The notes: a model not told the origin generated them from the sequence alone. A stretch of DNA of 64,000 bases from Mytilus trossulus (GCF_036588685.1 NC_086380.1:10277347-10341346), one strand, 5' to 3'. Positions 18,436-61,120 are shown, counted from the first letter of the stretch. Translations and numbers: made by a program.

Positions 18436-18482
18436 GAGCGTCACTGATGATCTTAATTAGACGAAGCACGCGTCTGGCGTAC
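18436..18482 (+). ncRNA. Degenerate hammerhead ribozyme motif (upstream partner of the dimer)
   Basis: gagcgtca-CUGAUGA-ucuuaauuagac-GAAGC-ACGCGUC|uggcguac. G10.1 is lost and the GAAA box is mutated to GAAG, so it is probably catalytically impaired. Confidence 0.5.
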
Positions 18483-22575: not shown

Positions 22576-24534
22576 GTCCTGTCGAGTGTTAGACCTGAGC
22601 AAAGATAGATGCGGTTTCGACCAGTTTAAATTTCTTTCACAAATAACAAAACATTTCAATCTAATTCTACTCAAACTAATGTGTTGTTAATAAAGACAAA
22701 ACTGAAATGATCACTCCTGGCATAAGCTGAAATAGAAGTCACTTGCATCAAAACTGGTTCCTACTGGTTTCGTCAATATGTACACTAGGAACACTAGAAA
22801 TAATGCTGGAAAGACAACAAAAATTCACAAACCGTAAAATGAGGTCCTCTGTTTTGTCATAAAAAAATTGTTCTCCACCGATTCCATTGTCATTTTTAAA
22901 ATATGAAGCAGTGCACAAGACCGTGTAAACAAAAAGTTTCCAATCAATGTGAAACCCAAATGGTGTATAGCATTGAATCTTGGTGCAAAATGAAACATTT
23001 TAGCATGAATTTAAAACACAAAAGAAGAAATTTTAGAAGAAATTGATATATCTATGTAACAAATGCTGTAAGTACCAATAGATTGCTTATTTTACTGTTT
23101 TTCAACTGTGAAGGTTTTGACATTCAATTATCGACATTTTAATAGACAAATTTATGTAGATAAGAAATATCATGATGCCAATACGTTTACCAATAGTGTT
23201 AACATTTCATCTCCTCATCATAATAGAACATTGCGATAGGGTTTCGGTTTTGTCTACATTTGTTTATTGAAGTGTCATCAGGAAGTTTTGTCAATATGTT
23301 TGCATTGATGCAGTCGAGAAGAATGCTAACTTTTAAGACTTCTTTAATTTTCTTGAAGTAATATAAAGTGAGTTTTTCACAGATTCGTTTGTATACGCCC
23401 AGATCGTGTGTATGTAATTGAGATAAAACAATCAGGTACTAAAAAAATCTTGAATGAGGTTCATTCTGTTTCAAGCACATTATGCTAACACATAAATAGT
23501 TGCCTATCTACGATCTAATCCAAAAACCAGTGAGTGTTCAAAGTTAATGTTCGTTATTTGAAATAGAACATTGGTTATGTGATGAGCTGTTGGTAAGATG
23601 TCAAGTAAAAAAGAACTCAAGCGGTCTAAGTAGGACTTCATCAATAAAAAGGGTGCCAGATGGGATCACACTCTTCCAGTAAACTCCCATTTTTGTATTG
23701 TTTGTTTTTTGGCCCTGTATAAAACTCTGTTCAGCTAGATTTTAGCTACCCAGTTTAAACAGCTCTATAACAAACTTATTTTACAAACACATAGTGTAAT
23801 CCATTAGGATCTTCTTTTTCGTCAACAAGATAACTACAACACATCCTTCTTCAATCGAATCATCGGATAACAAATTCAATATTTTTGCTTTATAATCAGT
23901 TTTTTGAGATAGTTATTAATTTTGTTCATTTACCGATCTTTATTACAAACAGCAAAATTCATTGCTCAATTAATTCAAGTATGATGTCGAAAAAGAATAT
24001 TAATATTATTTATTTCAATCAGTAAGATGTAACAGTTGACGGTAGACATGTTTGCTAAAAATTAAATATGTGAGCATATTTTAATTTGCTGTTCTGTAAA
24101 TTCAAAATAGGTATACAGATGAAGTCATATTGACATGAAAGAATCTTTCAAACCGTTAAATATTAGTTAAGGGTTTGAATAAACAATAAAAAAAAATAAT
24201 AATATCGAAATCCAAGGGATATTTGAATTGGAAAGTCGATTATCAAATGCCAAAATGAAAAGCTTGCTTTTATACACATCAATTGAATGGTACGCAAGTA
24301 TAATAATCCTTACCGAAGTTCAGTACTTTTGCTATTTTACTTTTCAGTATATATTTCTAGACTTCAAACATGTATTCTCCATCCCAAATTAAAAGACAAA
24401 TATAAAAAGTTGGTATTGCTTTTTTCATATAAAAAAAAAGTACGGCAAACGTAGATACAAGTATCTTGTCTTAGGGAGGGATAAATACTGCTTTGTAAAG
24501 AATCACTCTGATTCAAAATATCAAAATCTCTGAA

Positions 24535-24716
24535 ACTGACATTATCAAGATGCTTGAATTCTTGATCGACAACATGTTTGTTACGTTTAAGGACGTGCTT
24601 TGCATCAAAGTGTCGGCATTCCAATGGGAACCAATTGTGCATCTCTTCTTGCCGACTTGTTTCTTCATTATTACGAACATTCAGTAACTTCTGAGGAAGA
24701 GAGATAAAAAAAAAAG
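24535..24716 (+). pseudogene. Short frameshifted RT fragment of the same family
   Basis: The plus strand reads MLEFLIDNMFVTFKDVL.. followed by a frameshift into GIPMGTNCASLLADLFLHYYE. Compare MFDFLIDNIFVTF...GIPMGTNCAPLLADLFLYYYE at 39189. Confidence 0.55.
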
Positions 24717-26019
24717 TTAGCAATATACTTTAACTTTACGTTCCGCTATTTGAACTCATGAACTTTTCATGTCTATGTAGCAACATTCCAACAGCACCTG
24801 CATACAGAGTATATATCTACAAACTGATACAATATGCTTGTAATTCCTATCATTTTTATTTGTCTGTTTGTGTTTTTCTTTTTTAGCCATGGCGTTGTCA
24901 GTTTAATTTTTTGGATCTATGAGTTTATTCGCCACTCTTTCGCGATGTTAGTGTATTTGTTCTATAAGTGTAATCCATATCCATAAAACCTGTTGAACTT
25001 TTATATCTTAATGAAATAGTAAAACGACATTTGGCTTGAATCTCGCATAACCCAATACACTTGAAATCAATGATACTACAAAGGATATTAGGTAAGCTTT
25101 TTATTTTTGTTATTTAGACATTTTCCTTAATAAAGATACACACTAATTGACAGCAATAAAATTGAGAATGGAAATGGGGAATGTGTCAAAGAGACATATC
25201 AATCCCATATTGACTACGTCGTATTCTTGGGCAGTAGTATACTATCTTCATCTGCATAGATGTTTAAGTTTCTCAATATACTGAATTTGAAGTCCTCGAT
25301 GCCCTTCAATTTCATATTTTATGGTCTATAAAAAGTTATTTCGAACCTCAACGATGAATCTTTTGTAGCATGCACTTTCACTACCTTTTGTTTATAAGAT
25401 TTGTCAGCGATGGTTCTCGTTATAACAATTTCTTATTTTTTTAGCAAACGTATTCCACATGATAAAATGTCTCCCGACACTCATACATTGTCATATGAGT
25501 TTAATGTATGCGGAAATTATCATGTCCTAAGTTCCCTCGCCCTTTATGGTCAAATTAGTATTTTTTTCACCTCTTATCAAGAGTTTAAAGTTTCGTTTTA
25601 AATTCCCTTTTAAATTTTATGAACGCCATTACGAGTTGTCAGACTGTTTTGCATATCTGTTTCACGAATAACGACATATTTATTATAGGTATAATAGTCA
25701 TAAATGTCACCTTCTTTGTGCTTTTATTACCAATGATATGACCATGGGTTCCACATGTGGAGCAGGACCTGCTTACCCTTTGGCACACCTGGAATTACCT
25801 CCATCTTTTAATCGCTAAGTGTTTATTTGTGTATGATTTGTGTACTGTTATCCGTCTTTTCGTATTTTAATTTTGTATATTGTTAGTAGAATAACGAGAT
25901 TTGAACAATGGTAAGCTACATTTGTCCCTAAATTAATGGTATTTATAAGTGGATGCCTCCTTCGTTAGATTTTCAATGTTCTGTGTTTGACAATGATGTG
26001 TTTGTACAAAGGTGCATGA

Positions 26020-26215
26020 CGGATGTGGAGCAGAATCTGCTTATTCTTTCGGAGATCATCCCAAGTTTTTGTTGCTGTTCGTGTTGCTTAGTCTTTAGTT
26101 TTCTATGGTGTGTCGTCTGTACTACTATTTGTCTGTTTGTCTGTTTGTCCTTTTATTTTTAGCCATGGCGTTGTCATTATATCTATGATTTTGACTGTCC
26201 CTCTTTTGAATATAA
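26020..26215 (-). repeat. Family C copy (reverse orientation)
   Basis: It reads gtggagcagaatctgcttattctttcggagatc...tttttagccatggcgttgtcattatatctatgattttgactgtccctct. Partial reverse copies also lie at 24870-24960, 25745-25830, 31915-31990, 52385-52450 and 61600-61680. Partial forward copies lie at 16255-16400, 32950-33050 and 62090-62310. Confidence 0.5.
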
Positions 26216-31700: not shown

Positions 31701-33789
31701 ACACATTTTAGAAAAGACTGTCCTTATGAAAATTGAAACATAAGCTCCACCCGATCACTTAAACACACATTGGTTAAACTTGAATTTACAAAACATCAAA
31801 GTTGCGCTGGTATTTGAAAATAGTCGAATCAGGATTTTTTTATAGCTTGCATACGAATATTAATTCGTAATAATGCATTATGAATAAACTAATTTAGTAT
31901 ACTAGTATTACTTTTAAGTTGTTTGCAATAGCGTTGTCAGTTTATTTTCGATTTATGAGTTTGATTGTCCCTCTTGTATCTGTCGTCCCTCTTGTATATG
32001 TATGATACATTTATAGCGTAATCATACATAGTACACGGTGTAAATATGTATGGTTCACAGAATAATAATATTTGTTTCACTTTTAAATTTAAATAATTCA
32101 GGATTGTCGATGGTAGCCCTCATTCATAAAGCAGAATCAAAATAACGTTGAATTGTATAAGGCCGTTAAATGATATTTGTTATGCTTGTTTCACCTTTAA
32201 ACATTTCAAGACATCTTTTATTGACGAATACTCCATATCTTCTGTTATTTTAAGTTCAACATCTTCCGGAATATGGAGCTTCATCTTTATACAAAAGAAT
32301 CAAATGTTAGTCTGATTCCGATATCTGTCATACGATAGTCAATTATCTGTACTTTTTATACGTGGAAAGAATCCTTATATATAACAAAGCCTTTTATTTA
32401 CCTCATTAATGCAGCATCATTCTAATGTATTTCTTCTCAACAATTTCTCCACTGATTTATTGGATTATTTGTGATAAGAAAGCTTTCCATATACATAGCG
32501 TGAAACATCGAGACATATCCGCTCCTTCCACCTGATTTGTTTGACATTTGAATAATAACGTTTACATACATCTGAAGTGGAAATATACAATGCTGTCATT
32601 ACTGTAAATGTGATAAATTAGATCAGAAAGAACGTGCCTGGTAATTAAGTAACATCAGATTATAATTGAAACCCAATATATTCTACATAAAAATCGTATT
32701 TCATATATTGATAGAATACATAAAATATAGTTATATACTAAACATCAAAGTTGCGCTAGTATTTGAAAAAAATCGAATCGGGATTCTTGCATACGAATAT
32801 AAAATCCTAATAATACTTCACGACGAAATTGATAAAGTATTTTACTTTTTTATAGTTTATGTACCAGCGTTTAAATCTCATAAATCCATTGAAGATGATT
32901 AAAAAATACAAATCAAAGTAAACCAAAAACATTGAATGAACTTGAATCTGGTTATCCCAGGATGCACGATAAAAGAGGGACGAAGAATACCAGAGGGACA
33001 TTCAAACTCATAGATCGAAAATAAACTGACAACGCCATGGCTAAAAATGAAATATCGTCAATAGGCGTATCTTGCTATTCATGCACAATACAACATTTTC
33101 ATTTCAACTTAGTCAAAATGGCAAAATATGGATAAGGGCACATTATTTCTAAATATAAGATTAAAAAAATATTGCACTATAGAGCTAATCGTAAGACAAG
33201 TCATTTTAATATGCTGATCTATATAATCAATAAGGTATTAAAACCACGTCGATAAAGCCTTCAGCTTAATAAATGAACAATAAATGCATGCTCTTTGTTC
33301 ATTTGAAATAATGACCAAATATGAGCGGAATCTTCTTTCAAGGCTTGTCAGTTTTTTTTACTTGAGTTAGAATGTCTCTTTGGTATCTTTCGTCTCTATT
33401 TCACTTAAACTAAAATAGATATATACATTATTATATTGCAAAAGTGTCCAAAGTATTTGATCTGCCACGTCCGTCATTTCTTATTTATTTACATCAATTT
33501 TATTACCAATCAATTTTGGGATTCAGAGTTATTGTTGAACGTCTTCCTCTAAGGTGAAGTCGTCCATCTGTGTCAATATCGATGAGGAGACGAAAGTATG
33601 AAGCAGCCCTTTAGTAGTATCATTAATGTAAAGTTCAAAGGGATATATGAAATGAAAGTACTAGTTGAAATATGGCGTATTCAATGATAGGACATCGTCA
33701 ATACATCTGAAAGTAATTTCGCAAGGTGCATTTTCTCTCTGTGTTTTAGAAGGTTTTGAATGAACTCTTATTCATACGAGTTCAATAAA

Positions 33790-34015
33790 CAATCGGAGAG
33801 TAAAAAGTAAAATCACAAAAATACTGAACTCAGAGGAAAATCAATTTGGAAAGTCCATAATCACATGGCAAAATCAAAAAACAAAACGCATCAAAAACGA
33901 ATGGACAAGAACTGTCATATTCCTGACTTGGTACAGGCATTTTCAAATGTAGAAAATGGTGGATTAAACCTGGTTCTATAGCGCTAACCCTCTCACTTTA
34001 ATAACAGTCTCATCA
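33790..34015 (+). repeat. Family B2 copy
   Basis: It is homologous to 5790-6015. Confidence 0.5.
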
Positions 34016-34674
34016 AATTCCGTTACATTTACATGATGCGTTAAATAAACAGTCACAATCAATAAAATAGTCAAAATTTGGGAACATCAGTCATCATCGT
34101 ATAACAATTTAACAGGACACAACAACATCTACTATCTACGAACACATGGATTGATTTGAGTGTCTGACGTCAGAAAAATTATATACGTCACATAAATTTG
34201 TCGTTCAATGTGCATACAATAGTTATCCAAAGTACCTGGATTATAAACAATTTTAAATTTTACATAGGCAATGAGCGCAGACAGGGTTAAAAAATCAAAA
34301 GTATGTAAGTAAATGTGCACACAATAAGTACCGATTGGAATACCGATTGTCTGTCAAAAAATCAATCCTAGTAACTCAACAAATTTAGAATCAGAAATAC
34401 TCTTATCACCCAAAAATTGAAAAATCCCATTTTGACGGAAAGGCTTTCTTATAATGAGACGATATAGTCGATTGAGCATGAAAAATCGTAGTGTAAAGCA
34501 TGAAAAATCAAAGGTCTTATTCTTGCTGCAAAATTGCAAAGATCGAGACCTAAGATTTAACAGGAGATCTTTAGAATTTGTTAGAATTTACATCTGATTA
34601 ACACCACTAGTATATCTCATCACAATATTTTCGAGAGCCATATTATATTTAGAAAGAATAGTGGTCAGCACTTA

Positions 34675-34910
34675 AGAAAAATAGGGGAAAAATATACCAG
34701 AGGGACAGTCAAACTTAAAGATCGAAAACTATCAGACTTCGACACGTTTAAAAAATAAAAAGACAAACAGACAATTATTAGTTAACAGTACACAACATAG
34801 AAAACTAAAGTCTAAGCAATCCGATCTCAGGTGCTCCGGAAGGGTAAGCAGATCCTGCTCCGCATGTGGCACCCGTCGTGTTGCTCGTGTTATTACAATT
34901 CCGGTTAATT
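34675..34910 (+). repeat. Family C short interspersed repeat (~240 bp, SINE-like; same sequence as the RT element tail at 38215-38465)
   Basis: The 5' region taccagagggacagtcaaact.a.agatcgaaaa...aaactgacaacgccatggctaaaaat is shared by family copies. The 3' core ggtgctccggaagggtaagcagatcctgctccgcatgtggcacccgtcgtgttgct is present in this copy. Confidence 0.55.
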
Positions 34911-36134
34911 GTCTAAAAGAAAGATATTTAGTCGATCATGTTGATGATCCAGAAATGCTATCCAGTATAATGATGATAAATTTTCTTCGTTTTGTTTTAT
35001 GTTGATGCAAAAAGAAAGGAAGACAGATTTTGTATCATATAATTTGTCTTGCCCTTTATCAAATGTAACATGTATGATTCGAAATATAACACTTGAACAG
35101 TTTAAATATCATTTTACAAGGTTATTTCCGATATTTACCTTTCTGGAGTAATGCTCATTTTTAGATTTTAGAATGCGTCACTTGTTTATAAGCAGTTAAA
35201 TAAAAATAACACTGTATATTTCGTACGTCTAAAGTTTTTGTCTGGATTACCATTCTTTGGAACAGTTGGAGGTCAGGTAGGTATATTATCTTAAACAAAT
35301 TACGAGTATTTATGACCAAACTGAACTAACAATTAGCCAAAGTCGTCTAAAGGCAACACTACCTTAGGGAGCTAAAAACCTTCTTAGACATGTGTAAATT
35401 AGAATTTCAAATACTAGGTATGTTTTACATTTCTGTGGACTCATTAAACTTCTAACGTAAGTCTTCGGTCCATTGTTATCGAACATTGTTATCCTGGTAT
35501 CTACGAGTTTATTTATACCTTTGCAACCAATACTCTTTTCGTTGTGCTGAAACTGTTTTGACATTTCAACTCATTTGATATAATTTTACATTTTCCCAGT
35601 AAAATGTATATGAATGGTTTTGTTAACTGCATTTTCTTATTACAATGACAGAAAATTAAAAAGCAAAAATAAATGCATAAGTTAATAAATGCTCAATCTT
35701 ATTTTCTGCTATAACTTGATCTAATAAGAAAACAGTGTCCATAAGAATTTGCTTGAAATAAAAAAAAACATCCATAATCAAACATCGTAGATTTAAGATT
35801 CATCAAAAAAAAGAACGGAACATTTTGCTGATTAATCGGCTATTTCTTATATCCTTGGGAACAGCGTACAAAATGTCAAAAAGAAAAATTCAGACAGCAA
35901 ATAAATGTTGTCATCATATTTAGTTTTAAGCTAAAAGTATTGCTAAATATGACAACTCTCACTGTCAAATGCAATTTAATTAATTTCTATATGTAAAGAG
36001 AAAGTGTTTTCGATTCCCTGTAGCTTTGTGAAACAATCAGCGGTACTTTGATATGTCTACATAGATTAACATCTGAACGGCGTTAAATATTGTTTTCAAC
36101 AAATGTTTTTTAATGACATCTCACTTCATTATAC

Positions 36135-36245
36135 AACGAAATCCATAATAAAATTGAGAATGGAAATGGGGAATATGTCAAAGAGACAACAACCCGACAA
36201 AAGAAAAAAAAACAGCAGAAGGTCACCAACAATAAGACATCATGT
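36135..36245 (-). repeat. Extremely 5'-truncated copy (last ~105 nt) of the retroelement 3' tail
   Basis: ataaaattgagaatggaaatggggaatatgtcaaagagacaacaacccgacaaaag...cagcagaaggtcaccaaca matches 41456-41540 and then diverges. A shorter copy lies at 25145-25200. Confidence 0.55.
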
Positions 36246-38214
36246 GTACGTTTTTTTTTCAAATACAAAATTGAATTGAAAGCTTCAATTTTTATCTCAC
36301 AAATATTTATCGCGTTATGTGACCAGCCCATTTAAATAAGGATTCCAACAAAACCAATGTACACGTCTTATAGCTTAATATATTCTGTTTTTGATAAAAT
36401 ATGGCTCAGAAGGAAGATTTCAGAAAAGAAAATTTGACAAGTTGATGATTTGTACTTTCAAGTTATCTATTTCTCATTAGAAAACATACATGATGAACTA
36501 TCGTTTAGTTTACAAATATTTCAATGAATAAAATATACTCATGCATGTACAAACTATATTGACTTTTCAAGAAATGTGTGCGTCTGACATAAATTATGCC
36601 GCAACAGGGTTAAACAGCTTTTTAAACGAAAATTACAAAATCTAGCAGAAATACGTCTTGGTAAGTGTACAGTGGCGTGGTTTTTTTTTCATTTTGTGGT
36701 ACAAACAATGAAATTACACAGAATGCATTAGATTTTAAAAAGGGGAATTACAAGGCATCATTGCAGCTACACTTTTACAGGTATAATCATAGAAACACAC
36801 TTAAGAGTGTGATCGTTTGTAATTTTTTTTACATCAATTGAATAAACTCTAATTACAATATTGTTGAAATTGCTATCTTATTCAAAAGAGACGATATTGA
36901 CGAGGTGTATGACCGCCCAAGGACGACATGAAAAATATGCTTCTTTTAGGTCCTTTTATGAAAAAAAATACTTGATCAATTATATTCTATTTTGAAGCTA
37001 ACAAGAACTCATATGATTGAATCGAATTATGCTTGGAGTTTCTTCTTTGTCTGGTGATACAAAAACAAATTTACACTTAACAATCAGTTGAAATTCTTTC
37101 ATCAGCAATTAAGAAACAAACTGATTTAAAATTTTATGATTAAATTATACAGTATGTCTACAGTTTCCTAAAATCATTGAATTACCGATAAAATCAGATG
37201 AAAAAACAATTTGCTTTTCTGCCTAATAAAAAATGACGGTTATAAAGCTAAAATGAAATAATTGATTTTTAAATCAAATATTGTTAACATACTAATTGTG
37301 AACTTGTATTGATCAAGTGCTTTCTGATTTTACAAGTATATTCATTTTTCTTTTTTTAGTAAAAAAATACCTTGCTCAGTATGACACAAATGCTTTCCAA
37401 CACGATTGATCAATTGTAGCATAAAAGTAGTCAAATGGATGTCTGATTTGAAGCTATTTCTATTCGGTTGATCAACTTAAAGGAATATTTTGAATGGGCG
37501 TGCATTCTTTATCTTTATTTGATTACTATTTATGAGATTTTCACCCATATTCTACAAAATATTATGAACTGTCTGTTATACTTTGCTTCATTAGTTTTTC
37601 GGTGTATGAATGGCATTCTCCGTACACTCATGTGGAAACTCGCCTCGCTATTGTGTGATTTAAAGTAATACATTATATCGGATGAAAGAGATTAGTAATT
37701 AACTTCTATTCCGTTTGGATTATAACTGATGTTGTCGATGAGATAGAGGCAATTTAAACAGCCAACATATTCGTCAGTAACCTATTGTATCAACAGAGTT
37801 TGAAAAGAATTCGCAAGAAAAACATCCGTGGCAAATATTCACTGATTAGTTTTGTTTAAAATAGAATGTATGCTGCAATTACTTATTAAACGGCCAAAAG
37901 GCAAGGCAAAGCTCAACAGTGTTGTATGAAAGAGGTGCGCGTCAGAAGCGCTGTTGTTTTTTTTGCCGGTATCTTTCTAAAATCATACCACCTCCTTTGT
38001 TCTATCAGAAGTAATATGTGCAAAACCGGATCTCCCTAGCTTGAGTTGTTTTTATTCTAAATTCTTTGTTCTGTTCTGTAACGGTTTTGCGGGTATGTAA
38101 AATTCATAATAAAAACTAAGAAATATTTATACGGAAATAACTAACTATCAAAAATTATTTTGAAAACAAATCAGTGCATTTGCTTGGAATAGAACATGTT
38201 ATATAGTAATATAT

Positions 38215-39300
38215 AAAAGAGGGACCAAAGATACCAAAGGGACAGTCAAACTCGTAAATCTAAAACAAACTGACAACGCCATGGCTAAAAATGAAAAAGA
38301 CAAACAGAAAAACAATAGTACACATGACACAACATAGAAAACTAAAGAATAAACAACACGAACCCCACCAAAAACCAGGGGTGATCTGAGGTGCTCCGGA
38401 AGGGTAACCAGATCCTGCTCTACATGCGGCACCCGTCGTGTTGCTTTTGTGATTACAAATCCGGTAAAATTCTAATTCAGTAGGTCAAATTCATGAAAGG
38501 GAAGGGGATTGTAGCTACGACGTAAGGAACATATCCGATATCATTTGTGAAAAGGTTATTCCATAACGGTCAACCAACTCGTGATGGCGTCCGTAAAATT
38601 TACGAAGGGATGATTTCAACTTCACTATTTGGAACTCTTGGTTTAATAGCTTCCTTGTGAGCAGTAACCCTCTATCAAGAAAATCATGATAGGAAATGCA
38701 AGCACGGAAATATCGTATCAATTGGGACATATATACCCCGTATGCAGGTGCTGCTGGAATGTTGCTACTTAAAAATGGAAAGTTCACAATTGGAAAGCTG
38801 AAATCATCTCTTTTGTCGTAAAGTTTTGTCTTCAACCGACCCTCATTGTCAATTTCTAGATGTAAGTCAAGATATGAAGCCGACTTAACTGTATCTGTAG
38901 TATCCTTTATCTCCAATTCGATGGGATAGATGCGATCAACATAGTCACCGAATTTTGAATTGTTTAGTGAAAGAACGTCATCTATATAGCGGAAAGTAGA
39001 GTTAAAGGATATTGCTAACTTCTTATCTTTCTTCCTAAGAAGTTCCTGCATGAAGTCAGCCTCATAATAATAAAGAAACAAGTCAGCAAGTAGAGGGGCA
39101 CAGTTTGTTCCCATTGGGATGCCGACAGTCTGTTGAAAAACACGTCCTCCGAACGTAACAAATATGTTGTCAATCAAGAAATCAAACATCTTGATAATAT
39201 CGGTATCAGAGAATTTTTTATTTGAATCAGAATGATTCTTTACAAGGTAGGAATATATAAAGTATATTATAATGATTTGTGTCGCGTTCTAAACTAGTTT
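38215..39300 (-). mobile_element. Decayed retroelement copy: RT fragment plus 3' tail that is a family-C SINE-like sequence
   Basis: The RT ORF stop at 38515 is followed in minus sense by ~300 bp (38215-38465). That stretch equals the family-C short repeat (GGTGCTCCGGAAGGGTAACCAGATCCTGCTC...GGCACCCGTCGTGTTGC) seen many times elsewhere in the window. Confidence 0.55.
38515..39189 (-). pseudogene. Reverse transcriptase domain fragment of a retroelement (Penelope-like motif pattern; class uncertain)
   Basis: ORF with GIPMGTNCAPLLADLFL (an 'xMG..xAP..AxLF' motif, not the QG..LSP of LINEs) and FRYIDDVL (a Y-x-DD catalytic box). Its C-terminal region KLYDKRDDFSFPIVNFPFL...PAYGVYMSQLIRYFRAC is shared with the ORF at 42097-42600. 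The N-terminal RT motifs are missing, so the copy is truncated or decayed. Confidence 0.6.
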
Positions 39301-41455
39301 TTCTGAAGCTAAAATGTTATTTATCTATTCTAAGTAGTTATCTATTCGGACTTTGTAAGTCAGTGTGAGATCACCCTCTGGCCTCTGGCCATTGGGATGA
39401 TCTTACACTGACACACTGCATCCTCATGAGATAACTATCACAGAACAAAATCACTTACTTGAAACCTCATATCTTCAGTACAGATGGTATAACCAAGAAA
39501 AAATGTTGTTTAAATAACTGGAAATAATGAAATTAATTTCACCGGAAAAAACTCGTCAATGATACGCGCCTTTATGACCTCATTTACCAGATAGAGGGGA
39601 TCGCCTGTATCCCTGCATTATTAACGTTCATCAATCGTTTTATATTAGTGATCATCATTGTAAGATAAACTCGAAATAATGGTTGTTCTGTAGGTACTCA
39701 ATGACAATTCTCTAATGCCAGCAGTGCTGATTATTTATATTGAGAATTCAATTTGACGAAAAATTCGTACAATATAGAATTTTAGTTTTCCAACCACTCG
39801 CTCAAGATTGGAATGGGAGGACGCCCCTTAACGCACAAATGACGTTCACTAACACCAGAGTTTTTGACGGAGATGAAGCTAACTCGAAAGTTGTCTATTC
39901 AATTATTTATAGTCCTCTTACTAGTTTGTGCGCCTATTTGTGTATACAATAGTTATTGTAAATATATAATAAGACATATTCCGCTATTAAGCTGATATTT
40001 GTCTTAAAAACGCAGAAGAGATGATAAGAATGGTCAAATAGAAGCAAAACAAATACCTAACTCCATAAAAAATAACTAAAACAGACATGAAAATTTAATA
40101 TTATATACACCAACGGAACTAATGGATAACAACATAAAATTCCTGACTTGGTACTGACAATTTGTTAATAGAACAATGCGTATAAAATCAGGTTTTATAG
40201 CAAGGTACAATTCCTGCTTATAAGACGTATGTTTATAGTTCCATTATTTAGAGAATATAGTTTAGTATCAAAGAAATGAATATTTTGGTAAAATGTTAAT
40301 TTCTCTCCTTTTCCTTTGCCCAGTCAAATAATTCAAGCAAAATTGGATTTCTTTTGCAATACAATATTTCCAGGAATTTAGTTGTCAAGAGTTTTGTGGA
40401 CAGCTTTTTGTCTTTCTTTTTTTTTAACAATGGCCTAACGCTGATATCAACTTCGCCTTTATGTCAAGTAATTAGAAATACCACTAGATAGAAAAGGCCA
40501 TGGTTCTAGGAATCATTACGAATGACATTGAAATATAATTCAAAATCTTAAATATAAAGGGTTTTATAAGTTTGATTTATTATAGAATCAAGAAAGCTAT
40601 TTTCAAAATGTCATTCACATGTATTAATAAGTATTTACGCGTTTTTCCATATTTATGGCATATTCTAGTGTGTTGCAAAAAAAAAAATATATATAAAGTA
40701 AGATTGAATGCGATTACAATGAATCATCTCGGGTTAACTGATTTTCTTAGCTTCGGTGTTATTTATTCTAAAAATTCTTATTTGTTAAGCACATTAGAAA
40801 GGTTCTTAGAAAAATATGCAATCGCAATATAAATATGATTATAAAATAATACCTTTCATTTATTTACAAAGTGAGTCTTTAATCACCTTAAGCATTTTCA
40901 AAGCCGTAATGTAGACAAAAAGAATTATTCAAAATAGTACATAAAGTTCCATTTTCGTTAAAACTATGTCGGTCCACTCACAACTCCTTTATTCTAACAA
41001 TGAATGTGTATTCAATGTGACATAGATACATTGGGACTATTGTATATGTCTTAAAAGTTTTTGCCCGTGATATGTATTACAGGATACTGTCGTTATAAAC
41101 CTCGGATAATCATTCTTTTTTTTCGAATACAAAACAATTACTTAAATGTCTTCAGATTTAGCTTACTTAGTTTCTGTAAATTTGAGTAAATTTTAAATAC
41201 ATGTATTCTAAATGATTAATATCAAACTCTACGAAAATACAGAGCTAAACATTGTACATATTGTACACTGTGGGTAGAGAGCCACCCACCTAGAGTCCAA
41301 AGTAAAGTTAATTTGCCTGTCAACACCTTTCGGTTGATATAAATATATTGACAAAATGATATAGTCGGGACGGGTAATTTATTTTTCAATAGAAATGTAG
41401 AAAGAATTCAAGTTTAGGTTGCCATTGGTTTAATCAATTTTGACCTTTTATACAC

Positions 41456-42610
41456 TTATAAAATTGAGAATGGAAATGGGGAATGTGTCAAAGAGACAAC
41501 AACCCGACCAAATAAAAAAACAACAGCAGAAGGTCACCAACAGGTCTTCAATGTAGCGAGAAATTCCCGCACCCGGAGGCGTCCTTCAGCTGGCCCCTAA
41601 ACAAATATATACTAGTTCAGTGATAATGAACGCCATACTAATTTCCAAATTGTACACAAGAAACTAAAATTAAAATAATACAAGACTAACAAAGGCCAGA
41701 GGCTCCTGACTTGGGACAGGCGCAAAAATGCGGCGGGGTTAAACATGTTTGTGAGATCTCAACCCTCCCCCTATACCTCTAACCAATGTAGAAAGGTAAA
41801 TGCATAACAATACGCACATTAAAATTCAGTTCAAGAGAAGTCCGAGTCTGATGTCAGAAGAAGTAACCAAAGAAAATAAACAAAATGACAATAATACATA
41901 AATGACAACAGACTACTAGCAGTTAACTGACATGCTAGCTCCAGACTTCAATTAAACTGACTGAAAGATTATGATTTCATCATATGAACATCAGGCATAA
42001 TCCTTCCCGTTAGGGGTTTAGTATCATACCATCATAACATATATGAGAAGAACATAACCCGTGTCATGCCAACAACTATTTTTAGAATAAATGTGTTTAG
42101 TTCCGACGCAAAGACCTTATCAGTGACTCAATATTAACGCCAAAATATGCAATCTTTAATGACTTGACAACAGTATCGTAATTATATCCCTTCTTAATAA
42201 GTCTATTCAAAGGTTTTGTAAGTTTTTGAAGTGAATACTGACAGCTTTGTGCTTTATACAGAATATTTCCATAAAAAATTGGATGTGAAATACCTGAACG
42301 TATAAGAAGTCTGCATGTTGAGCTATATTTACGAATGATGTCTTTATACCGATGATAAAATTTAGTAAATGTTTTGACTAGTTTGTGATATCGAAAACCC
42401 TGGTGTAATAATTTTTTAGTAATACATAAATTTCTCTCGTTAAAATCTAAAACATTGTTACATACACGACTGAATCGTACAAGTTGAGATATATAAACAC
42501 CGTTAGATGGTGACAAGGGAACGTCACCATCTAAAAACGGATAATTAACGATAGGAAATGAAAAATCATCCCTTTGATCATAAATTTTAGTATTTTAGTA
42601 ACTATTTCTA
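41456..42610 (-). mobile_element. 5'-truncated retroelement copy of the same RT family: C-terminal ORF plus ~640-bp 3' tail
   Basis: The minus ORF 42097-42516 extends in-frame to ~42600 as ...KIYDQRDDFSFPIVNYPFLDGDVPLSPSNGVYISQLVRFSRVC..., homologous to the 38515-39189 ORF C-terminus. Its 3' tail (41456-42096) is ~98% identical to 55476-56100. The tail terminus 'aaaattgagaatggaaatgggg' (plus) recurs as short 3' fragments at 36135-36245, 25145-25200 and 49165-49200. Confidence 0.6.
42097..42516 (-). pseudogene. C-terminal ORF fragment of the retroelement polymerase
   Basis: It is homologous to the C-terminal 90 aa of the 38515-39189 RT ORF (GVY[IM]SQL[VI]R[FY].R.C....F..R.L..TKKLL.QG). No upstream RT core is present. 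Confidence 0.5.
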
Positions 42611-45600
42611 CGTTTCCTTGTGTGTTTTTGTTGCACCTCGGTCGGTGTTCCTGTTGGTCCTTAGATTTCCTCTTACAGTTGATGTGTTTCCCTCGGTTTA
42701 GGTTTGTGACCTGGAGTTTTTTACTCTAAATTAATTCATGACTTTCGCACACCGGTATACTACTGGATCATATTTTCCTCTTTTTGATCATTGACGTTGA
42801 ATCGAATAGACATTCTGCAAAATGGATGACAAAAGTATGTTGTGTTTGTACATAGTAATTGTCTCCACAAAACCACAAAATTAGATATTTACAAAAATTT
42901 CAAAGATGGATTGAAATGTCGTTAAATCGTCTTTTGATTCATGTATTTCAATTTCTCTATGTCATCTTTTCAACATTGATGTATTACATACGTCAATACA
43001 TGGTATAGAAAAAGAAAGATTTGAAATTGATCCTTCATTGTCTACACAAAGAATGCTCGTTTTATACATCCCCATCTGATGTGTCCACACCGTTTTACTT
43101 AGCTACCAAGGTATTTATCAAGGTTGGTGATTGATTCGAACAGGTTGGGAACAAACACCCACATGGGTGATAATTAACCCATTTTGTGTTTCAAAGTCTA
43201 TATGGGATATAAATTTACTGAGCAAACAAGAAGTTGTAGTAATTAAGATATTGAAAATATAATTTGGTCGTTATTGATTTTTCCAGAAAAAGGAACACGT
43301 TTCTCTATAGAATCCTTTGAAAACAGAATATTCCAAAGGATCATACTCATAAAGATATTCAAATATGTTGGAAACAAATGTTGCTGCCTTTTTTTAACTA
43401 TAAATGCATATCCCATTGGTGTATTTAATAATCAACTAGATATGGTAACCATATGAGTTAATGTTCAAAACATGTTGGATGGTAGATAAAAGACGAAACG
43501 TGAAATGAGAGTATAAAAAAGTACTGTTGTATTCCAAGGTTAAATTCCAGCTGTAGAATAGTGATTTATTTTACGTACTTTAACTGGTCTAGAATTTTTG
43601 AATTATTTTGTCATGAAGAATGATTTGATAGAGGTTTCTTCAATGATCACTCTATCAATTATCACTTACAGAAGAGGAATTCACATATCCAACCATAATT
43701 ATAAAAACAATCAAGACTATTTCAAAAATGCATTATATGAAATATTTGTTACTAGCTGTTATATCAAACACCACTAAAACAATAATCTTCTATTAAATGA
43801 AAGAACAACGATGACCAAGGACATTTAAACTTTTAAGTCGATGCAAACGTTGAAAAAATAGAAGCATTTAATAAAACAAGCGTATAATAGTACAAGCGTA
43901 TGGTAAAAGAAAGCGTATAATTATTGTGATTATGGACTCTCCGAATTGATTTTTCTCTAAGTTTAGTATTTTTGTGATTTTACTTTTCATTACTGTTGCA
44001 AACACAGATAATGGAAATATTCTATTTCAACCGATATTATTTTCCCTTGTTTATGATTATGAGGCAACGTTGATCAACAATTTTGTTTTGTTTTGTTTTT
44101 ATTTTTCAATATTCTGTCGACTAAATATTATGCACTGTCTATTTTAATTCGCTTCATTACTTTTATATTCCATCGATGACTTTCTCCGTACACTTGTATG
44201 GACATTAACAATATTTATGTTTGATTTCGAGTGATAAATCATATCGAATGGATGAGAATGGTAATTAAATCTCCTCTCTTTTTGTATTTTACTAATATTT
44301 GTGTTGAATATATAAGTCTTCACCAGTCTAGCATTTTCTATAGATTGATTGATCGGACATGGTTTTAACAATGTTAAAGAATTAATGGAAGAAAGGTCAT
44401 TACCCAGAAAGAAATTTCAGTAGTATTTTTTCACAGTGTGGTTTGTTTTGATTCATGGCAACATTTTCTCCTTTAATAATGAATTCCATTATGAGACTAA
44501 CTTACACAATCCTATCCTTTGGACAGAACAATTTTAAAACATATGCATTTGCATATCTACTAACTAATTATCTAACCTACAAAAATAATAAACATTTCTT
44601 TAAAAGGAAAGATCTGTCCAAATAAACCTAATTAAAAGCCTGGGAGCATTGAAAAGACAGGCGAAAATTAACAAAATGTAAGGAATGTTTAAACCCATAA
44701 CAGGCATACTTCGAAAATAGACTGACAACGTCAAGGCTTTAAGGATGTATTCTTCTGACTTTTCAGTCTCGTTCAGTCTCGTTGAAATCTCGTTCTTAAA
44801 TCATTTCCAAAACATATGATAGAGGTGGAAAATATCAATGAATTTTAAAAAAAATTATAATCAAACATAACTCTGTGAAAAAAATGTGTATTTACCATGA
44901 ACGGTTTTTGAATAATCCAGTTTTCAAATTTTACGACCATTCAAGTCAGTATTTTTAGTCAAAATTTTGAGAAAGTGGGTGAGGGATATAAAAATGATTT
45001 TACAAGAATAATATACATCCCATCTCATTTTGGTCTTTTCAAATTTCTTAGATATGTATTTTTTCAATCATTTATAACAAAAAAGTTGAATTAATATGCA
45101 TTTTGTTCTTTAAAATGAGAAAAATCATAAAAATACAAAATTGGCAGTATGGTAAATTTTACACAAAAAAGCATCAAAATATGATAAAACTTTCTTATAT
45201 TAACACCTACCTATAGTTTTTGTAAGTTAAATTTATTCAGATTGGTCCACTTCATCTTTATGGAAAGTATGAAAAAAAGTTTAATTGTGGAACTGTGATT
45301 TTTTTCATGATATTAGCCCAAAAATAGGTAAAAATCAATGAAAAGTGAGAAAATCATCAAAATTGGGCATTTTCAAAGGGCCGTAGCAAAAAAAGAAGCA
45401 CACCACCATATGATTTTTTCTTCACCAATTGTTTTGTTAAAGTCTTATAAACCTAAAAATCAGGTTAAGAAAAAAAGTTTAATTCTAGAAATGTTTGGCT
45501 CCTCAGAGGTGTACATCCTTGACATGATTTATGTCATACTGACATGATTTATAACAAACCTCAACATAGTTTCTGAATAAATTTTGAAATTAAAAGAAAC

Positions 45601-46698
45601 TAGAGGTGTAAACTTCCTCCGGCTAAGGTGACCTTGAATTAACCTTACTATTATGTAGGTGTTGTTGTTTGCCCACCTGTTTTGTTTCTTCTGCATCATT
45701 AGCTCGGAAATGTTTTGATTTTATCATTCTTGATGAAGGCAAATCAAGAAAGGGGTCCAGACATAAGACATCTATATCGGTTTTTGTTCTAGTATACTTT
45801 AGACCGTAGTAAATTTTCATTTGACCAATTCTACTGTTTACCTTTATTATTATTTTATTCTCACAAAATTTTCTTTAGAAATTCTTTATTTAAGATCTCA
45901 ATTTTGATAATAAAATGATTTCCAAGAAAACATCACAAACCAGTTTTGTTTTAACCTGAAATAGTTTTATTAGTAAGTGGCATTGTGTATATTGTATATC
46001 CACGATACATTAAAATACACGACAACGAAATATTGGTAACTATATATTCTCTCTTTCAATTCAAACGAATATTAGAACCTGAATGCATAATTAAGTGTGT
46101 CACTGAAATGACTCGAGAGAATTTGTCGTCTGTGATCAACAGCTGAGAGAAATGCCAGGCTCCTATGTTTTGTGGTTTATTTAATGAAAACTAAATACAA
46201 AAGACTTGCTTCAATTCCCTGGCTATCATTTCGCCTAAACACAAAATTAAAACAAAATTAGTTTTTGGTTTTGTAATGATTTCAGTTCCCGCTGAATAGA
46301 ACAATATGATGAATAATGGGAAGACGCAGATAGAAGGAATTTTTGTTTGTAATCGGTATGACTCATATTTTAAATTAAAGAATTTTGTTCCCTTTCTTTT
46401 TTCACATTGTTTTGAGACAGAAAATCGCTCTGTCACTTGTCACGTGTTCTGAGGGATGCATGGGAGAATGAATAGTTCTTTTTTTTCAAATACTACTTTC
46501 ATGCTACGGCTTAACAACAAAAAATCGTCGACCGTTGAAAGAAAAATATAATGCATAATAATTATAGAGTAAAACACATAAAAAATATTTTATAACATAA
46601 TGTCAGTTGCTGTAAATAGTATATATCAAGATCAACTTTAAATAATCACCAATGCTCTTCAACTTTGTACTTGTTTGGCTTTATAAATATTTTGATAT

Positions 46699-46746
46699 GA
46701 GCGTCACTGATGAGTCTTATGTAGACGAAACGCGCGTCTGGCGTAC
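46699..46746 (+). ncRNA. Hammerhead ribozyme motif (intact core) in a solo retrozyme fragment (46650-46790)
   Basis: gagcgtca-CUGAUGA-GUCuuauguaGAC-GAAA-CGCGCGUC|uggcguac. It is identical in its core to the 18771 copy. The flanking 50 bp upstream and 'ctaaattataattctggtacttttgataactat' downstream match the retrozyme unit. Confidence 0.65.
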
Positions 46747-48289
46747 TAAATTATAATTCTGGTACTTTTGATAACTATCTACAATATATATATATGCATT
46801 TCACGTACAATCATTTGTTACATTGTAAAACGTTCATCGACACAGGTGTTACAATATATGAAAAACAATGACTATGTGTTATACTCATCGGGTTTTTCAA
46901 TTATCCAGATAAAAATTAATTAAAGGTAATAAGTGAATAATGTAGATATACTTTTGGTGTAACTTTATACCAAATTCTGTCTGTGAAGTTTAACAAATTT
47001 CCAAACTTTTATAACATTGTAATAATTCGTCGACACCGGTGTTCTGAAGCAATAATGACTCCATGTTATATTTCTTCAGGTTTTGCCTTATTATTTAGAT
47101 AAAGTTGATTAGATATAATGAAGTATTAAATTGTAGATATATTTATATTATATTCGAAATTTCCTTTTTGAAATTAAGAAAATGGAAAAACTTTATTTTT
47201 ACGTTTGTATTGTTTACATGCTCAATATATTTTTTATTTATATTCAAGGATGTTTAAAGAATCAGAAAATTACCGACGACATATTTTTTTGTGTTTTCTG
47301 TCAAGTAATAACAATTTCGTATTTAAATAGGTCTGTTTGTGTGACAATCTTTTGTGATAATCAGCCTTTCTGACAATATCTTTATTTTCTCAACAATGTA
47401 TTTAACATTTAACATTTTTTTCATTATTTGCACATGAGTCTATGAGGGATTGATCAATACAGAGTAAAATTAGAATTACAGATTATAATGTTGTCAATTC
47501 AAGAACCAATAGTTTCTTTTAATTAAGAAACCTCTTTGGTATATATTCTTCTGTCTATGAAAAAAACACCATCAGCAATGTGTTGCACACTGCATAACTC
47601 CCTAAGCTGGTTTTTTTAAAGGTGTGTATCACATGTTTTAGATTATTTCGAATAGACAGAAAATGTATTGCAGTCATTCCTTGTAAGATTTTCATTGTTT
47701 TCGACTTTTTAAACATGTAGACTATGGAAATGCTTATTTACAATATTTGTCTAATCTGCTCTATAAATAATTTTGTTCTTTTTATTCAATAGATCAACTA
47801 TTCGCATACAATGTGTTTGATTTTAAATGATTAAGAAATAAGCTTCTTCTATCTATACAACTTGATACATTTATTACCATTTGCACGATCCATTTAAAAT
47901 TTCTTTTGATTTGTAAGATTAAAGCAAAGATTAAAGTGTAAAAGTCTTTCAATTATTGGAAACATTTTCTAGTTGACATTTGAAAAATAATCTTTTAACT
48001 CTAATCTTACTACTTATTTCAAATCAGTTTAATTAAGGTCTTACGAAGGCATCCATCTGCTATCAAAGAACAAAAATAATCAACTCGCTCATTTTAGTAA
48101 ATAGACATACATGGTAATAGTAAGAGAGATATGAAGCTGATACACACGAAGTAACAATTAAATGAAACATGTTACGATCAAGTGATAAACGAGAAGTGGT
48201 TTTATTTTAAATTATATTGTCGTTAATATTACGACTGAAACAATTGTTTAAGAAATAAATGTTGTTTTTATGTATTTCAACAAAGACAG

Positions 48290-48520
48290 TGCGGAATGCA
48301 TCACGACAGATTTCACATTTGGAGCAGGATCTGCTTAACCTTCCGGTGCACCTGAAATCATCTTCAGTGTTTTTATGGGGTTCGTGTTGCTTAGTTTTGT
48401 GTTTTCTTTGTTTTAAATTTTGTACTAATAGTTGTCGGTTTTTTTTTTAATTTTTAGCCATTCCGTTGTCAGTTTATTTTCGTTCTAAGAGTTGTACTGT
48501 CCCTCTGTCCTCTTTCGTCC
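48290..48520 (-). repeat. Family C copy (reverse orientation, full length)
   Basis: It reads ggagcaggatctgcttaaccttccggtgcacc...tttttagccattccgttgtcagtttattttcgttctaagagttgtactgtccctctgtcctc. Confidence 0.55.
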
Positions 48521-49861
48521 TTCTTTTCGATGAATCATCAACACAGTTTGAGTTATTTGTTGTTGATACAATTAGCATTAACAGATCTAGAGTAAACAAA
48601 TCAAGAAAAAATCAAGAAAACCGAACTTTACTATGTTTACTATGATACTATAATAGCATAATCTCTTCATTAGAGATTAACACAAGTTATATGTACACAT
48701 CCTCACAAGAATATTAAGATTTTATATTTCCACCAGGAGCGCGTTATGATGGCGTTTCCATTACCGAATATCTCATAAAAGAAAACACTTCAATGATTGT
48801 CACTGTTTTTTCTATGTTTATAAGACAAGCTTGGTACACATATTAAATCTATAAATATTAAAATATGCTTTCAGTTCACGTCAGTTTTATCTTTTTGCCG
48901 CGTGCTTTCAAAAACATTTGTTCTCAAACCAGTTGTTTGCATGATACAGGTTATGTTCTATGATACTAAACCCCTTACAGGAAGGATAGTGTTTGGTATT
49001 GATATGGTGAAGACACAATCTTTCAATCAGTTTAATTGAGGTCTGAAGCTGAAATGTCAGAAACTGCTAGTAGTCCTTTATTTATTTATGTATCATTGTC
49101 ATTTTGCTTAGTTTCTTTTGTAACCTATTCTGAAATCGGACTTGGACTTCTTAAAAACTACGTTTTACTAAAAATTGAGAACTGAAATGGGGAATGAACG
49201 TATTGCCGTGTGTTTGATTTTCCTTATTGGATAGCGGTATTGGGGCAAAATTGAGACATCATAAAACATTTTAACCCCGCCGCATGTTTTAGCCTCTGTC
49301 CTGTCTTAGGTTCTGTATGATTTTCACTTTTCGTTCTTATACATTTCTTTGAAAATTCACTGATTTTTTAAAAATTTTAGTAAGGTGTCAGCTGAAGACC
49401 TCCTTTGGATGCGGGTATGTATCACTGTGTTGTAGACTTATTGGTGACTTTCTCCTGTATTTGTCAATTTTGTCATATTGTTGTCTTTTTGACACATTTC
49501 CCAGATCTATTTTATTTCTTGTTTTTACGTTGCTTGAATATAGTTTTATGTGATGGACTGCATGTGATCCTAAAATAAACATTATTTTAATAATGATACA
49601 CAATATATCTACCTATCTTTGACATTTGTATGTTTTGTTCACACATTGTTTTTTATGCGACTGTCATGCTAGTGGGACGTTTAACTAGCGATTAAAACAT
49701 TTTCTACATAAGCTTGTTCATTCTTTTGATGTGTTTTGAGCTTTTTATTTGGCGATTTGATTGTGAATGTTTTCTACATAACAATAACCTGTTCATTCTT
49801 TGATGTGTTTTGAGCTTTTATTTTGCCATTTGATTTGGGATGTTTTTGAAATTTTCTCGAA

Positions 49862-53159: not shown

Positions 53160-53400
53160 TCAAAAAGGGCGACAGATACCAGAGTGACAGTCAAACTCAT
53201 AGATCGAAAATAAACTGACAACACCAGGGCTAAAATAGTAAACGACAGACAAATAACAGTACACAAGACACAAGATAGAAAACTAATGACTAAGCAACAC
53301 TATCCCCGAAAAGAAATGGGGGTGATCTCAGGTGCTCCGGGAGAGTAAGCAGATCCTGCTCCTTGAGTGGCACCCACCGTGTAACTCTTCTTATAATAAT
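53160..53400 (+). repeat. Family C copy
   Basis: It reads gggcgacagataccagagtgacagtcaaactcatagatcgaaaataaactgacaacaccagggctaaaa...ggtgctccgggagagtaagcagatcctgctccttgagtggcacccaccgtgtaactc. Confidence 0.55.
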
Positions 53401-55475: not shown

Positions 55476-56290
55476 CTTGATAAAATTGAGAATGGAAATG
55501 GGGAATGTGTCAAAGAGACAACAACCCGACCAAAATAAAAAAACACAACAGCAGAAGGTCACCAACAGGTCTTCAATGTAGCGAGAAATTCCCGCACCCG
55601 AAGGCGTCCTTCAGCTGGCCCCTAAACAAATATATACTAGTTCAGTGATAATGAACGCCATACTAATTTCCAAATTGTACACAAGAAACTAAAATTGAAA
55701 TAATACAAGACTAACAAAGGCCAGAGGCTCCTGACTTGGGACAGGCGCAAAAATGCGGCGGGGTTAAACATGTTTGTGAGATCTCAACCCTCCCCCTATA
55801 CCTCTAACCAGTGTAGAAAAGTAAAAGCATAACAATACGCACATTAAAATTCAGTTCAAGAGAAGTCCGAGTCTGATGTCAGAAGATGTAACCAAAGAAA
55901 ATAAACAAAATGACAATAATACATAAATAACAACAGACTACTAGCAGTTAACTGACATGCCAGCTCCAGACTTCAATTAAACTGACTGAAAGATTATGAT
56001 TTCATCATATGAACATCAGGCACAATCCTTCCCGTAAGGGGTTTAGTATCATACCATCATAACATATATGAGAAGAACATAACCCGTGTCATGCCAACAA
56101 CTGTTTTTAGAATAAATGTGTTTAGTTCCGACGCAAAGACCTTATCAGTGACTCAATATTAACTCCAAAATATGCAATCTTTAATGACTTGACAACAGTA
56201 TCGTAATTATATCCCTTCTTAATAAGTCTATTCAAAGGTTTTGTAAGTTTATGAGGTGAATACTGACACCTTTGTGCTTTATAAATTGAT
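55476..56290 (-). mobile_element. Second, more 5'-truncated copy of the retroelement 3' region
   Basis: It is ~98% identical to 41456-42280 over ~815 bp, including the last ~60 codons of the ORF. Homology stops abruptly at ~56283, the 5' truncation point. Confidence 0.65.
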
Positions 56291-60539: not shown

Positions 60540-61120
60540 AATTGATAAATCGATAGAGAAAAAAACAAATATGGGTTACAAACTAGAACTGAAGGAAATG
60601 TATCAAATATAAGAGAACTACGACATAACAGAGACACAACACCGAAACGTAACACACAGAGTAACGAACTATAGTGTAATAGTGGTAATTTTCCTGAATT
60701 GGGACAGGGCATTTTATGAAGAAAAAAAGTGGGTTGAACCTGGTTTTGTTGAATGCCAAACCTCCCGCTTTATTGGCAGTGTTAATTATAACATTAAACG
60801 ACAGGGTTAAAATGACAAAACCAGATAACTGGGAGAAAATATAGGACAGAGAAACAAACGAATAACAGCCATCCAAAGGTAACAGCTCGAAAAATATTTA
60901 TTATCACCAGTCGCACTACGTCCACACAAAACTATGCTTAGTTGTAAAAGGTTTGAAAGCTACCAAGTTGAAGATCGCCGAGGATCACAAGTTCCAGAAA
61001 GTTGTGAGGCCAGGGTTATCCGCCTGCGACAAAACATCATTATTATCAAGAATAATACATTGTTTTGCAAACAGTAAATTTTATAAAATGACTATATAAT
61101 AGATATACATGATTTAACTT
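60540..61120 (+). repeat. Family B copy plus retrozyme-related 3' segment
   Basis: It reads aaaggcaacagtagtataccgatgttcaaaattgataaatcgat...cctgaattgggacagggc...gggttgaacctggttttgttgaatgccaaacctcccgc. The segment 60950-61120 is homologous to 9120-9320. Confidence 0.5.

Follow-up and report, generated by a model that had tools for sequence, protein, structure and literature searches.

Locus and reverse transcriptase remnants

The stretch analyzed here, hereafter the window, is a 64,000-nucleotide (nt) segment of the Mytilus trossulus genome (GCF_036588685.1 NC_086380.1:10277347-10341346). Within it, the first-pass annotation had noted two open reading frames (ORFs) coding for a reverse transcriptase (RT) with Penelope-like motifs. 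Both ORFs and the motifs quoted for them are real, and the outer ends were found at 38213 and 42594, compared with 38215 and 42610 in the earlier annotation. Our results indicate that the interval very probably contains two separate insertions, both dead and shortened at the 5' end, which lie on the minus strand and come from two distinct families of Penelope-like elements (PLEs) in the Naiad clade described by Craig, Yushenova, Rodriguez & Arkhipova (2021; PMC8557442). Copy 1 belongs to family 1, of the cysteine (Cys) type, and copy 2 to family 2, apparently of the selenocysteine (Sec) type. Their ORF remnants and 3' untranslated regions (3'UTRs), here called tails, are listed in Table 1 together with the other features of the window.

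The 224-amino-acid (aa) ORF at 38515-39189 (-) in copy 1 holds GIPMGTNCAPLLADLFL, FRYIDDVL, and KLYDKRDDFSFPIVNFPFL...GVYMSQLIR, and in-frame homology to relatives reaches upstream to 39252, which extends the remnant to 245 codons. For copy 2, automatic ORF calling gives 139 aa, and a TAA at 42595-42597 immediately precedes the remnant; the frame from 42594 down reads KIYDQRDDFSFPIVNYPFLDGDVPLSPSNGVYISQLVRFSRVC... / KIYDQRDDFSFPIVNYPFLDGDVPLSPSNGVYISQL... over approximately 165 codons. The proteins of copy 1 and copy 2 are only about 50% identical over their common part, so that they represent two families and not two copies of one.

Full-length references for the two families, L047 and L035, were obtained from a scan of metagenome contigs. 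The contigs are 3447 and 4094 nt long, and each has identical 77-nt ends, giving head-to-tail units of 3370 and 4017 nt, respectively. In blastn searches, copy 1 corresponded to nt 2477-3447 plus 1-147 of the L047 unit (97.9% identity over 971 nt and 98.6% over 147 nt), and copy 2 to nt 3013-4093 plus 1-135 of the L035 unit (98.3% over 1081 nt and 97.8% over 135 nt). The tails in the window cross the head-to-tail junction of these units, which fixes the 3' ends of the elements at 38213 and 41458. At the protein level, the copy 1 ORF was 97% identical to residues 756-1000 of the L047 protein (tblastn, E 1e-151), and the copy 2 ORF was 96% identical to residues 844-1008 of L035 (tblastn, E 2e-95). 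More than 7,997 database proteins matched the copy 1 ORF, and 36,851 cluster representatives matched the family profile at E<=1e-3, nearly all of them short C-terminal fragments. A look-up of the exact window ORF in public assemblies gave no entry. With such E values and thousands of protein relatives, the RT remnants are not chance matches.

Naiads have been described as favoring (TA)n microsatellite targets. In the small sample of insertions available here, copy 1 lies between ...ctttatatat and atattactatataac, and copy 2 and its twin lie outside TA repeats. A near-perfect hairpin (GTCAGTGTAAGATCA...TGATCTCACACTGAC) was observed at approximately 39358-39414, about 100 nt past the 5' truncation point of copy 1.

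Table 1. Naiad-derived features and hammerhead repeats of the window (positions counted from its first nucleotide; SECIS, selenocysteine insertion sequence)
Feature	Position	Strand	Evidence or remark
Copy 1, Naiad family 1 (Cys-type), 5'-truncated insertion	38213..39252	-	blastn to L047
Copy 1 ORF remnant, last 245 codons of RT (motif B GIPMGTNCAPLLADLFL, motif C FRYIDDV, thumb)	38515..39252	-	stop 38515-38517
Copy 1 3'UTR (tail 1), 302 nt, terminus ...CCCTCTTTTAT	38213..38514	-	
Copy 2, Naiad family 2 (apparently Sec-type), 5'-truncated insertion	41458..42594	-	blastn to L035
Copy 2 ORF remnant, last 165 codons (RT thumb and long C-terminal extension ...GISHPIFYG...)	42097..42594	-	TAA stop 42097-42099
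Copy 2 3'UTR (tail 2), 639 nt, terminus ...CTCAATTTTAT	41458..42096	-	
SECIS in copy 2 3'UTR, starting 51 nt after the stop	41981..42045	-	Rfam SECIS_1, 35.6 bits (gathering score 35)
Twin of copy 2, deeper 5' truncation: 54 ORF codons and tail, SECIS at 56006-56070	55480..56285	-	blastn 99% to L035; tblastn to residues 955-1008
Older tail-only copy of the family-2 lineage, SECIS 5' half deleted, begins at stop codon	48910..49528	+	67-71% identity
Extreme 3'-terminal fragment of family 2, 85 nt, TTTTAT(T) terminus	36147..36231	-	
Terminal fragment of family 2, 42 nt	25155..25196	-	
Tail-1-like short unit directly upstream of degenerate RT fragment 34680-33548 (partial tandem)	34678..34916	-	
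Tail-1-like short units	16180-16393, 26017-26202, 48298-48527, 53162-53382	-, +, +, -	
Tail-1-like short units	31911-31997, 32969-33052, 52382-52462	+, -, +	
Degenerate family-1-like Naiad copy, RT part and tail piece, internal deletions	24354..24926	+	
Degenerate Naiad RT fragments	62176-62452, 33548-34680, 3212-3352	-, -, -	
Hammerhead (type I) repeat family, retrozyme-like	18434-18855, 46631-46783, 63561-63896; 61750-61815, 4021-4126	+, +, +; -, -	Rfam 22.5-33 bits

Domain architecture and placement in the Naiad clade

In either family, the full-length unit (3.4-4.0 kb) codes for one protein of about 1000 aa, with a CX4CxxC finger, a GIY-YIG/CCHH endonuclease, a KR-rich block, the CxC, GxKY, and DKA motifs, the RT, and its thumb in this order. 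The L047 ORF contains 1000 codons without any TGA and reads CETKGCKTC, VVYGLECNLCGLVYVGET (GIY-YIG with CCHH), the KR-rich block, PDCTC (CxC), GPKY, PADKAPNNIVFIC (DKA), the RT motifs, the thumb, and the stop. The CxC and DKA motifs are PDCTC and PADKAPNN in L047 and SCNC and PADKAANN in L035, and the motif residues listed for L047, among them C426, C428, D553, K554, and A555, were invariant in a 12-sequence alignment. The N-terminal endonuclease features occupy residues ~94-180 of L047 and ~56-140 of L035, with invariant Cys, His, R, E, and N columns (alignment A4). Naiads are described as having an insertion-in-fingers domain, with about 20 extra aa between RT3(A) and RT4(B); motif A (D707) and motif B (G794) of L047 are 87 aa apart. 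The ORF stops directly after the RT thumb or extension in the window copies, L047, and L035, and no domain lies downstream. Similarly, the longest relatives (P0138, P0161, P0255, and P0230; 960-1055 aa) have the RT at the very C-terminus and GIY-YIG at the N-terminus, where the Pfam GIY-YIG match is at or over the cut-off in P0161 and P0255. In PDB sequence searches, the family profile matched the catalytic domain of I-TevI (1ln0, E 0.0014), and this was its only match, with no TERT or RT among the results. Pfam gave weak RVT_1 and GIY-YIG matches on L047 and nothing useful on L035; the RVT_1 match was generic only (18-22 bits for the window ORFs and L047).

The combination of an N-terminal GIY-YIG, CxC, DKA, and a C-terminal RT in L047 and L035 places them in the Naiad clade. 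Judged from their sequences, both families belong to Naiad, an already described kind of transposon. They share with Naiad, including the re-extended Repbase Penelope-2_CGi, the N-terminal GIY-YIG with CX2-5CxxC and CCHH fingers, the KR-rich block, CxC, GxKF/Y, DKA in place of DKG, the C-terminal RT, and units of 3.4-4.4 kb. Heavy 5' truncation, partial-tandem pseudo-long terminal repeats (pLTRs), the lack of a canonical hammerhead, a very high copy number, and abundant 3' ends that show up as 'unknown' short repeats are also common to them. No defining feature differs in families 1 and 2, as judged against the published description. The canonical PLEs, whose endonuclease is C-terminal (Penelope/Poseidon, Neptune, Nematis, Hydra), resemble these families in GIY-YIG, pLTR/tandem organization, 5' truncation, and probably RT lineage. 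However, the domain order is permuted here, with no GIY-YIG downstream of the RT, and no hammerhead is found in the tail or pLTR.

These results agree with the earlier assignment of the RT to Penelope-like elements and not to long interspersed nuclear elements (LINEs): the full-length relatives carry GIY-YIG and not an AP endonuclease, the ends are partial-tandem pLTRs and not true long terminal repeats (LTRs), and the tails end in TTTTAT without poly(A). The accompanying suggestion of an endonuclease-less lineage or a decayed copy did not hold. The nuclease is N-terminal in Naiad and was lost here only by 5' truncation of both copies, so that none was seen in the window because of the permuted domain order together with the truncation. 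Most of the related full-length loci that were checked carry the 3' tail a second time, at the upstream end of the contig, with 95-100% identity. This repeat is imperfect (95-98%) in L016, L019, L026, L029, L046, and L077, indicating that it is not mere assembly overlap. The upstream tail repeats are the pLTR or partial-tandem organization of PLEs.

Apparent selenocysteine-type coding in family 2

Family 1 uses cysteine codons throughout. In family 2, the L035 frame continues over 1008 codons only when read-through of four TGA codons is assumed. Of the corresponding residues, U61 falls on the middle Cys of the CX4CxxC finger, U92 on the Cys preceding GIY-YIG, U103 on the first CCHH Cys, and U528 on the Cys located 8 aa past DKA. 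These four positions are also UGA in the sibling loci L034 and L036. Among 22 read-through ORFs from independent contigs, recurrent TGAs (in at least two loci) fell on five columns that hold Cys in every other sequence, one of them being the first Cys of the CxC motif, and in many independent contigs the ORFs were otherwise free of TAA and TAG over ~1000 codons. The first independent example, L004, has a TGA exactly 8 aa after DKA, and many Naiads in the marine metagenome loci L006-L037 and L048 contain 2-6 in-frame TGAs, the recurrent ones only at conserved Cys. In the latter set, TGA occupied the first Cys of CxC in 9 loci and the middle Cys of CX4CxxC in 6, two positions that are not listed as UGA positions for clams in PMC8557442. 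Contigs L001-L003 are all 5'-truncated and were of no use for the Sec question.

The SECIS in the tail of copy 2 has intact AUGA, AAA, and UGAU core motifs and is the only above-threshold Rfam match in the window. SECIS matches starting 0-55 nt downstream of the stop were obtained for 7 of the 12 Sec-type loci and for none of the 3 Cys-type loci. Across lineages, the AUGA, AAA, and GA elements are kept, 92% of the cells are paired vs. 33-51% in slid controls, and double changes occur in 11 of the 18 SECIS pairs. Family 2, comprising copy 2 and its twin, therefore appears to be a selenoprotein-type Naiad in which UGA would be read as Sec. Tail 2 recurs in the window as the first-pass annotation had claimed, and it was the SECIS within this tail, and with it the Sec-type coding of the family, that had gone unnoticed.

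Sec-encoding Naiads have been reported from two clams and two spiders (Naiad_Scon, Naiad_Mmer, Naiad_Sdum, and Naiad_Smim; PMC8557442), and our literature search found no later report of them. Family 2 is similar to these elements in having several UGA codons at conserved Cys (before GIY-YIG, first of CCHH, 8 aa after DKA) and a SECIS shortly downstream of the stop. It differs in that one of the four UGA codons of L035 falls on the middle Cys of CX4CxxC and none in RT6(D), and in that its SECIS begins 51 nt after the stop, compared with 1-21 nt or an overlap in the published elements. The UGA pattern and SECIS spacing of L035 match none of the four described families, as far as these are set apart by their published descriptions. 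Thus, family 2 is probably an undescribed Sec-type family.

Tails and short repeats

The tails of both RT copies recur across the window, as had been noticed before. Tail 1 (38213-38514) has 11 further partial matches, tail 2 (41458-42096) is 97-99% identical to the twin at 55480-56285, tail-tail pieces lie at 25604-26202, and at least 7 Naiad-derived RT remnants were found in the 64 kb. The family-2 pieces all end in ...CAATTTTAT(T) and have varying 5' ends. Since they share a terminus, differ at the 5' end, and include one piece that keeps ORF sequence, they form a truncation series and not a short interspersed nuclear element (SINE). The earlier proposal of a SINE/partner tail relationship is therefore mostly wrong: the short repeats are co-linear 3'-terminal Naiad pieces that share the TTTTAT terminus and lack a tRNA, 5S, or 7SL head. 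In LINE/SINE pairs, such as tRNA-SINEs mobilized by CR1 or RTE, short abundant repeats also share the 3' end of an autonomous RT element, whereas the short repeats described here are nested 3' fragments without a Pol III-type head or an independent body. This is in agreement with Craig et al., who traced unclassified models of short repeats in genomes of this kind to the 3' ends of Naiads (PMC8557442).

A tRNA-derived head for the short units was suggested by the box-B-like GGTTCGTG and found no support: ARAGORN detected no tRNA gene, and Rfam gave no tRNA, 5S, or 7SL match in the whole window at E<=5. In addition, families 1 and 2, with their ~50% protein identity and mostly unrelated tails, were observed to share the terminal TTTTAT(T) at 38213, 41458, 55480, 36147, and 25155. 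This terminus may be an RT recognition or priming site.

Hammerhead repeats and the shared 5'UTR module

Four type I hammerheads were detected below threshold by Rfam in the window, at 46701-46744 (33 bits; gathering score 34), 18773-18816, 63814-63857, and 61751-61794 (-). They belong to a tandem repeat of ~336 nt, which has no relationship to the tails of the Naiads. No Rfam hammerhead match was found in copy 1, copy 2, L047, or L035, which agrees with the published lack of canonical hammerhead ribozymes in Naiads (PMC8557442). However, the family-1 5'UTR (L047 148-230) matches the 5' portion of the hammerhead repeat unit (18516-18605, 63541-63627) and a tandem repeat in L002, with 73-87% identity over 44-86 nt. 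The link to hammerhead ribozymes proposed in the first-pass annotation thus fails through the copies themselves and survives in part in the segment of 50-86 nt shared by the family-1 5'UTR and the hammerhead repeats. The same module, conserved over ~50-85 nt and with the core CTGCTGGTGGAC...GTCCCCGAGG...GCCCAGTAG, is also present at L082 1928-1999, L045 1614-1656, and, within a tandem repeat, L002 6958-7045 and 7338-7409. It showed no supporting covariation for an RNA structure, and no Rfam family matched it in the scans that covered it (window and L047).

At L002 6722-7409, the homology of a Naiad RT remnant breaks off close to the C-terminus, and a 380-nt tandem repeat with the shared module and CTGATGAG...CGAAA follows. 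The latter was considered by eye as a minimal hammerhead, and was discarded after Rfam gave no hammerhead match even at E<=10. Metazoan non-LTR retrozymes have been proposed to be non-autonomous derivatives of PLE pLTRs, in a study that detected Naiads only in a coral and made its pLTR/retrozyme comparison in Xenopus (bioRxiv 10.64898/2026.07.22.740005). The ~336-nt type I hammerhead tandem repeats of the window resemble such retrozymes in that their unit has, in its 5' portion, homology to the family-1 Naiad 5'UTR; the difference is that the Naiad copies themselves have no hammerhead.

Other repeats in the window

The window is AT-rich (~31% GC) and full of interspersed repeats. A 168-nt tandem repeat in 3 copies (85-94% identical) lies at 11730-12233 and is followed by a block at 12536-14193 with repeats spaced ~800-860 nt apart. 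Long inverted repeats are found at 7609-7835 and 8686-8912 (227 nt, 91%) and at 7851-7947 and 8590-8686 (97 nt, 89%). The inverted repeats at 7609-8912 are related to repeats at 17564-17841 and 60504-60794 and resemble a miniature inverted-repeat transposable element or a foldback element; a piece of this family adjoins the 5' end of copy 2 at 42666-42765.

Alternative explanations

Several observations weigh against the interpretation given above. The nuclease, CxC, DKA, and UGA codons are all absent from the window copies and were read from metagenome contigs that are 98% identical and not from the same genome, and the Pfam match of the window ORF is weak (RVT_1, 18.4 bits, under the cut-off). 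The SECIS score is barely over the threshold (35.6 vs. 35), the SECIS alignment was built from model hits, which favors structure, and 5 of the 12 Sec-type loci have no Rfam SECIS match; among these five, a SECIS-like hairpin was recognized by eye in L016, L021, and L014, and none lies directly after the stop in L029 and L037. Finally, five tail-1 units start within ~45 nt of each other, which is sharper than simple random truncation predicts. As the window holds the RT C-terminus only and Pfam gives just a weak generic RVT_1 match, the RT might be placed in a clade of non-LTR LINEs or among the endonuclease-less PLEs (Athena/Coprina-like) and not in Naiad. We consider this extremely improbable, given that the ORF finishes with the RT and no domain comes after it. 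It is also very unlikely, to a somewhat lesser degree, that the SECIS match is fortuitous, the in-frame TGAs are inactivating mutations, and family 2 is an ordinary decayed Naiad. Such decay would fit a window without any Sec codon and the marginal SECIS scores, those of the twin (56006-56070, -; 32.8 bits) and L035 (32.3 bits) being below threshold. However, it does not fit the confinement of the recurrent TGAs to five invariant Cys columns in ORFs that stay open over such a length in many contigs, nor the SECIS that directly follows the stop in TGA-bearing lineages only and shows compensatory changes, and the same phenomenon has been published for the Naiad clade (PMC8557442).

The short repeats could be SINE-like non-autonomous elements that borrow the Naiad tail, and this applies at least to the ~235-nt tail-1 units, which would then be a discrete element. 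The five units concerned (16180-16393, 26017-26202, 34678-34916, 48298-48527, and 53162-53382) are tail-only, 220-260 nt long, without ORF remnant, and with unrelated flanks; they begin at L047 3254-3299, i.e., 40-85 nt after the stop, and end at 144-147 with a common ...CTTTTAT terminus. Moreover, their identity to the tail of the young copy is 70-80%, so that they make up an older or separate population. A promoter within the tail (pLTR) could conceivably drive the transcription of tail units of this kind, and the Naiad RT could then retrotranspose them. However, the clustered starts were seen in five copies only, the short units follow the Naiad 3'UTR from end to end and lack a separate head, as the searches for tRNA, 5S, and 7SL also indicated, and the family-2 short repeats are nested truncations, one of which contains ORF sequence. 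Together with the finding of Craig et al. on Naiad 3' ends mentioned above, this makes SINE-like elements an unlikely explanation, and 5'-truncated Naiad insertions are the preferred one.

Proposed mechanism and implications

According to what is known of PLE biology, the GIY-YIG nuclease of a Naiad would nick the target, and the RT would reverse transcribe the element RNA, starting at the fixed 3' end (...TTTTAT). Synthesis would usually halt early, leaving insertions with a common 3' terminus and differing 5' ends. Such early halts would account for the restriction of both copies to the RT C-terminus, for the apparent lack of a nuclease, and for the abundance of the tails as 'short repeats'. 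Truncated copies of family 2 would carry the SECIS of their 3'UTR along.

These lines of evidence can be combined into a broader, tentative proposal, which we regard as doubtful in its entirety. In this proposal, family 2 would be undescribed and form one branch of a much larger group of Sec-Naiads that radiated in marine invertebrates and whose proteins contain up to 5-6 Sec, one position being in CxC. The hammerhead retrozymes of this genome would be non-autonomous partners of the hammerhead-less Naiads through the shared 5'-terminal module, and the ~235-nt tail units would be a second Naiad-dependent element with a pLTR promoter.

The assignment to Naiad means that a single known mechanism explains both an RT that seems to lack a nuclease and several 'unknown' families of short repeats, and the correct annotation of repeats in invertebrate genomes depends on the recognition of Naiads. 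As an apparent Sec-type element, family 2 extends the only known case of selenoprotein-encoding transposons. Its two truncated copies scatter apparently intact SECIS elements within 64 kb, which is the route proposed by Craig et al. for the gain of SECIS by host genes (PMC8557442). Additionally, the module common to the Naiad 5'UTR and the hammerhead repeats provides a lead on which element mobilizes the retrozymes of invertebrates.

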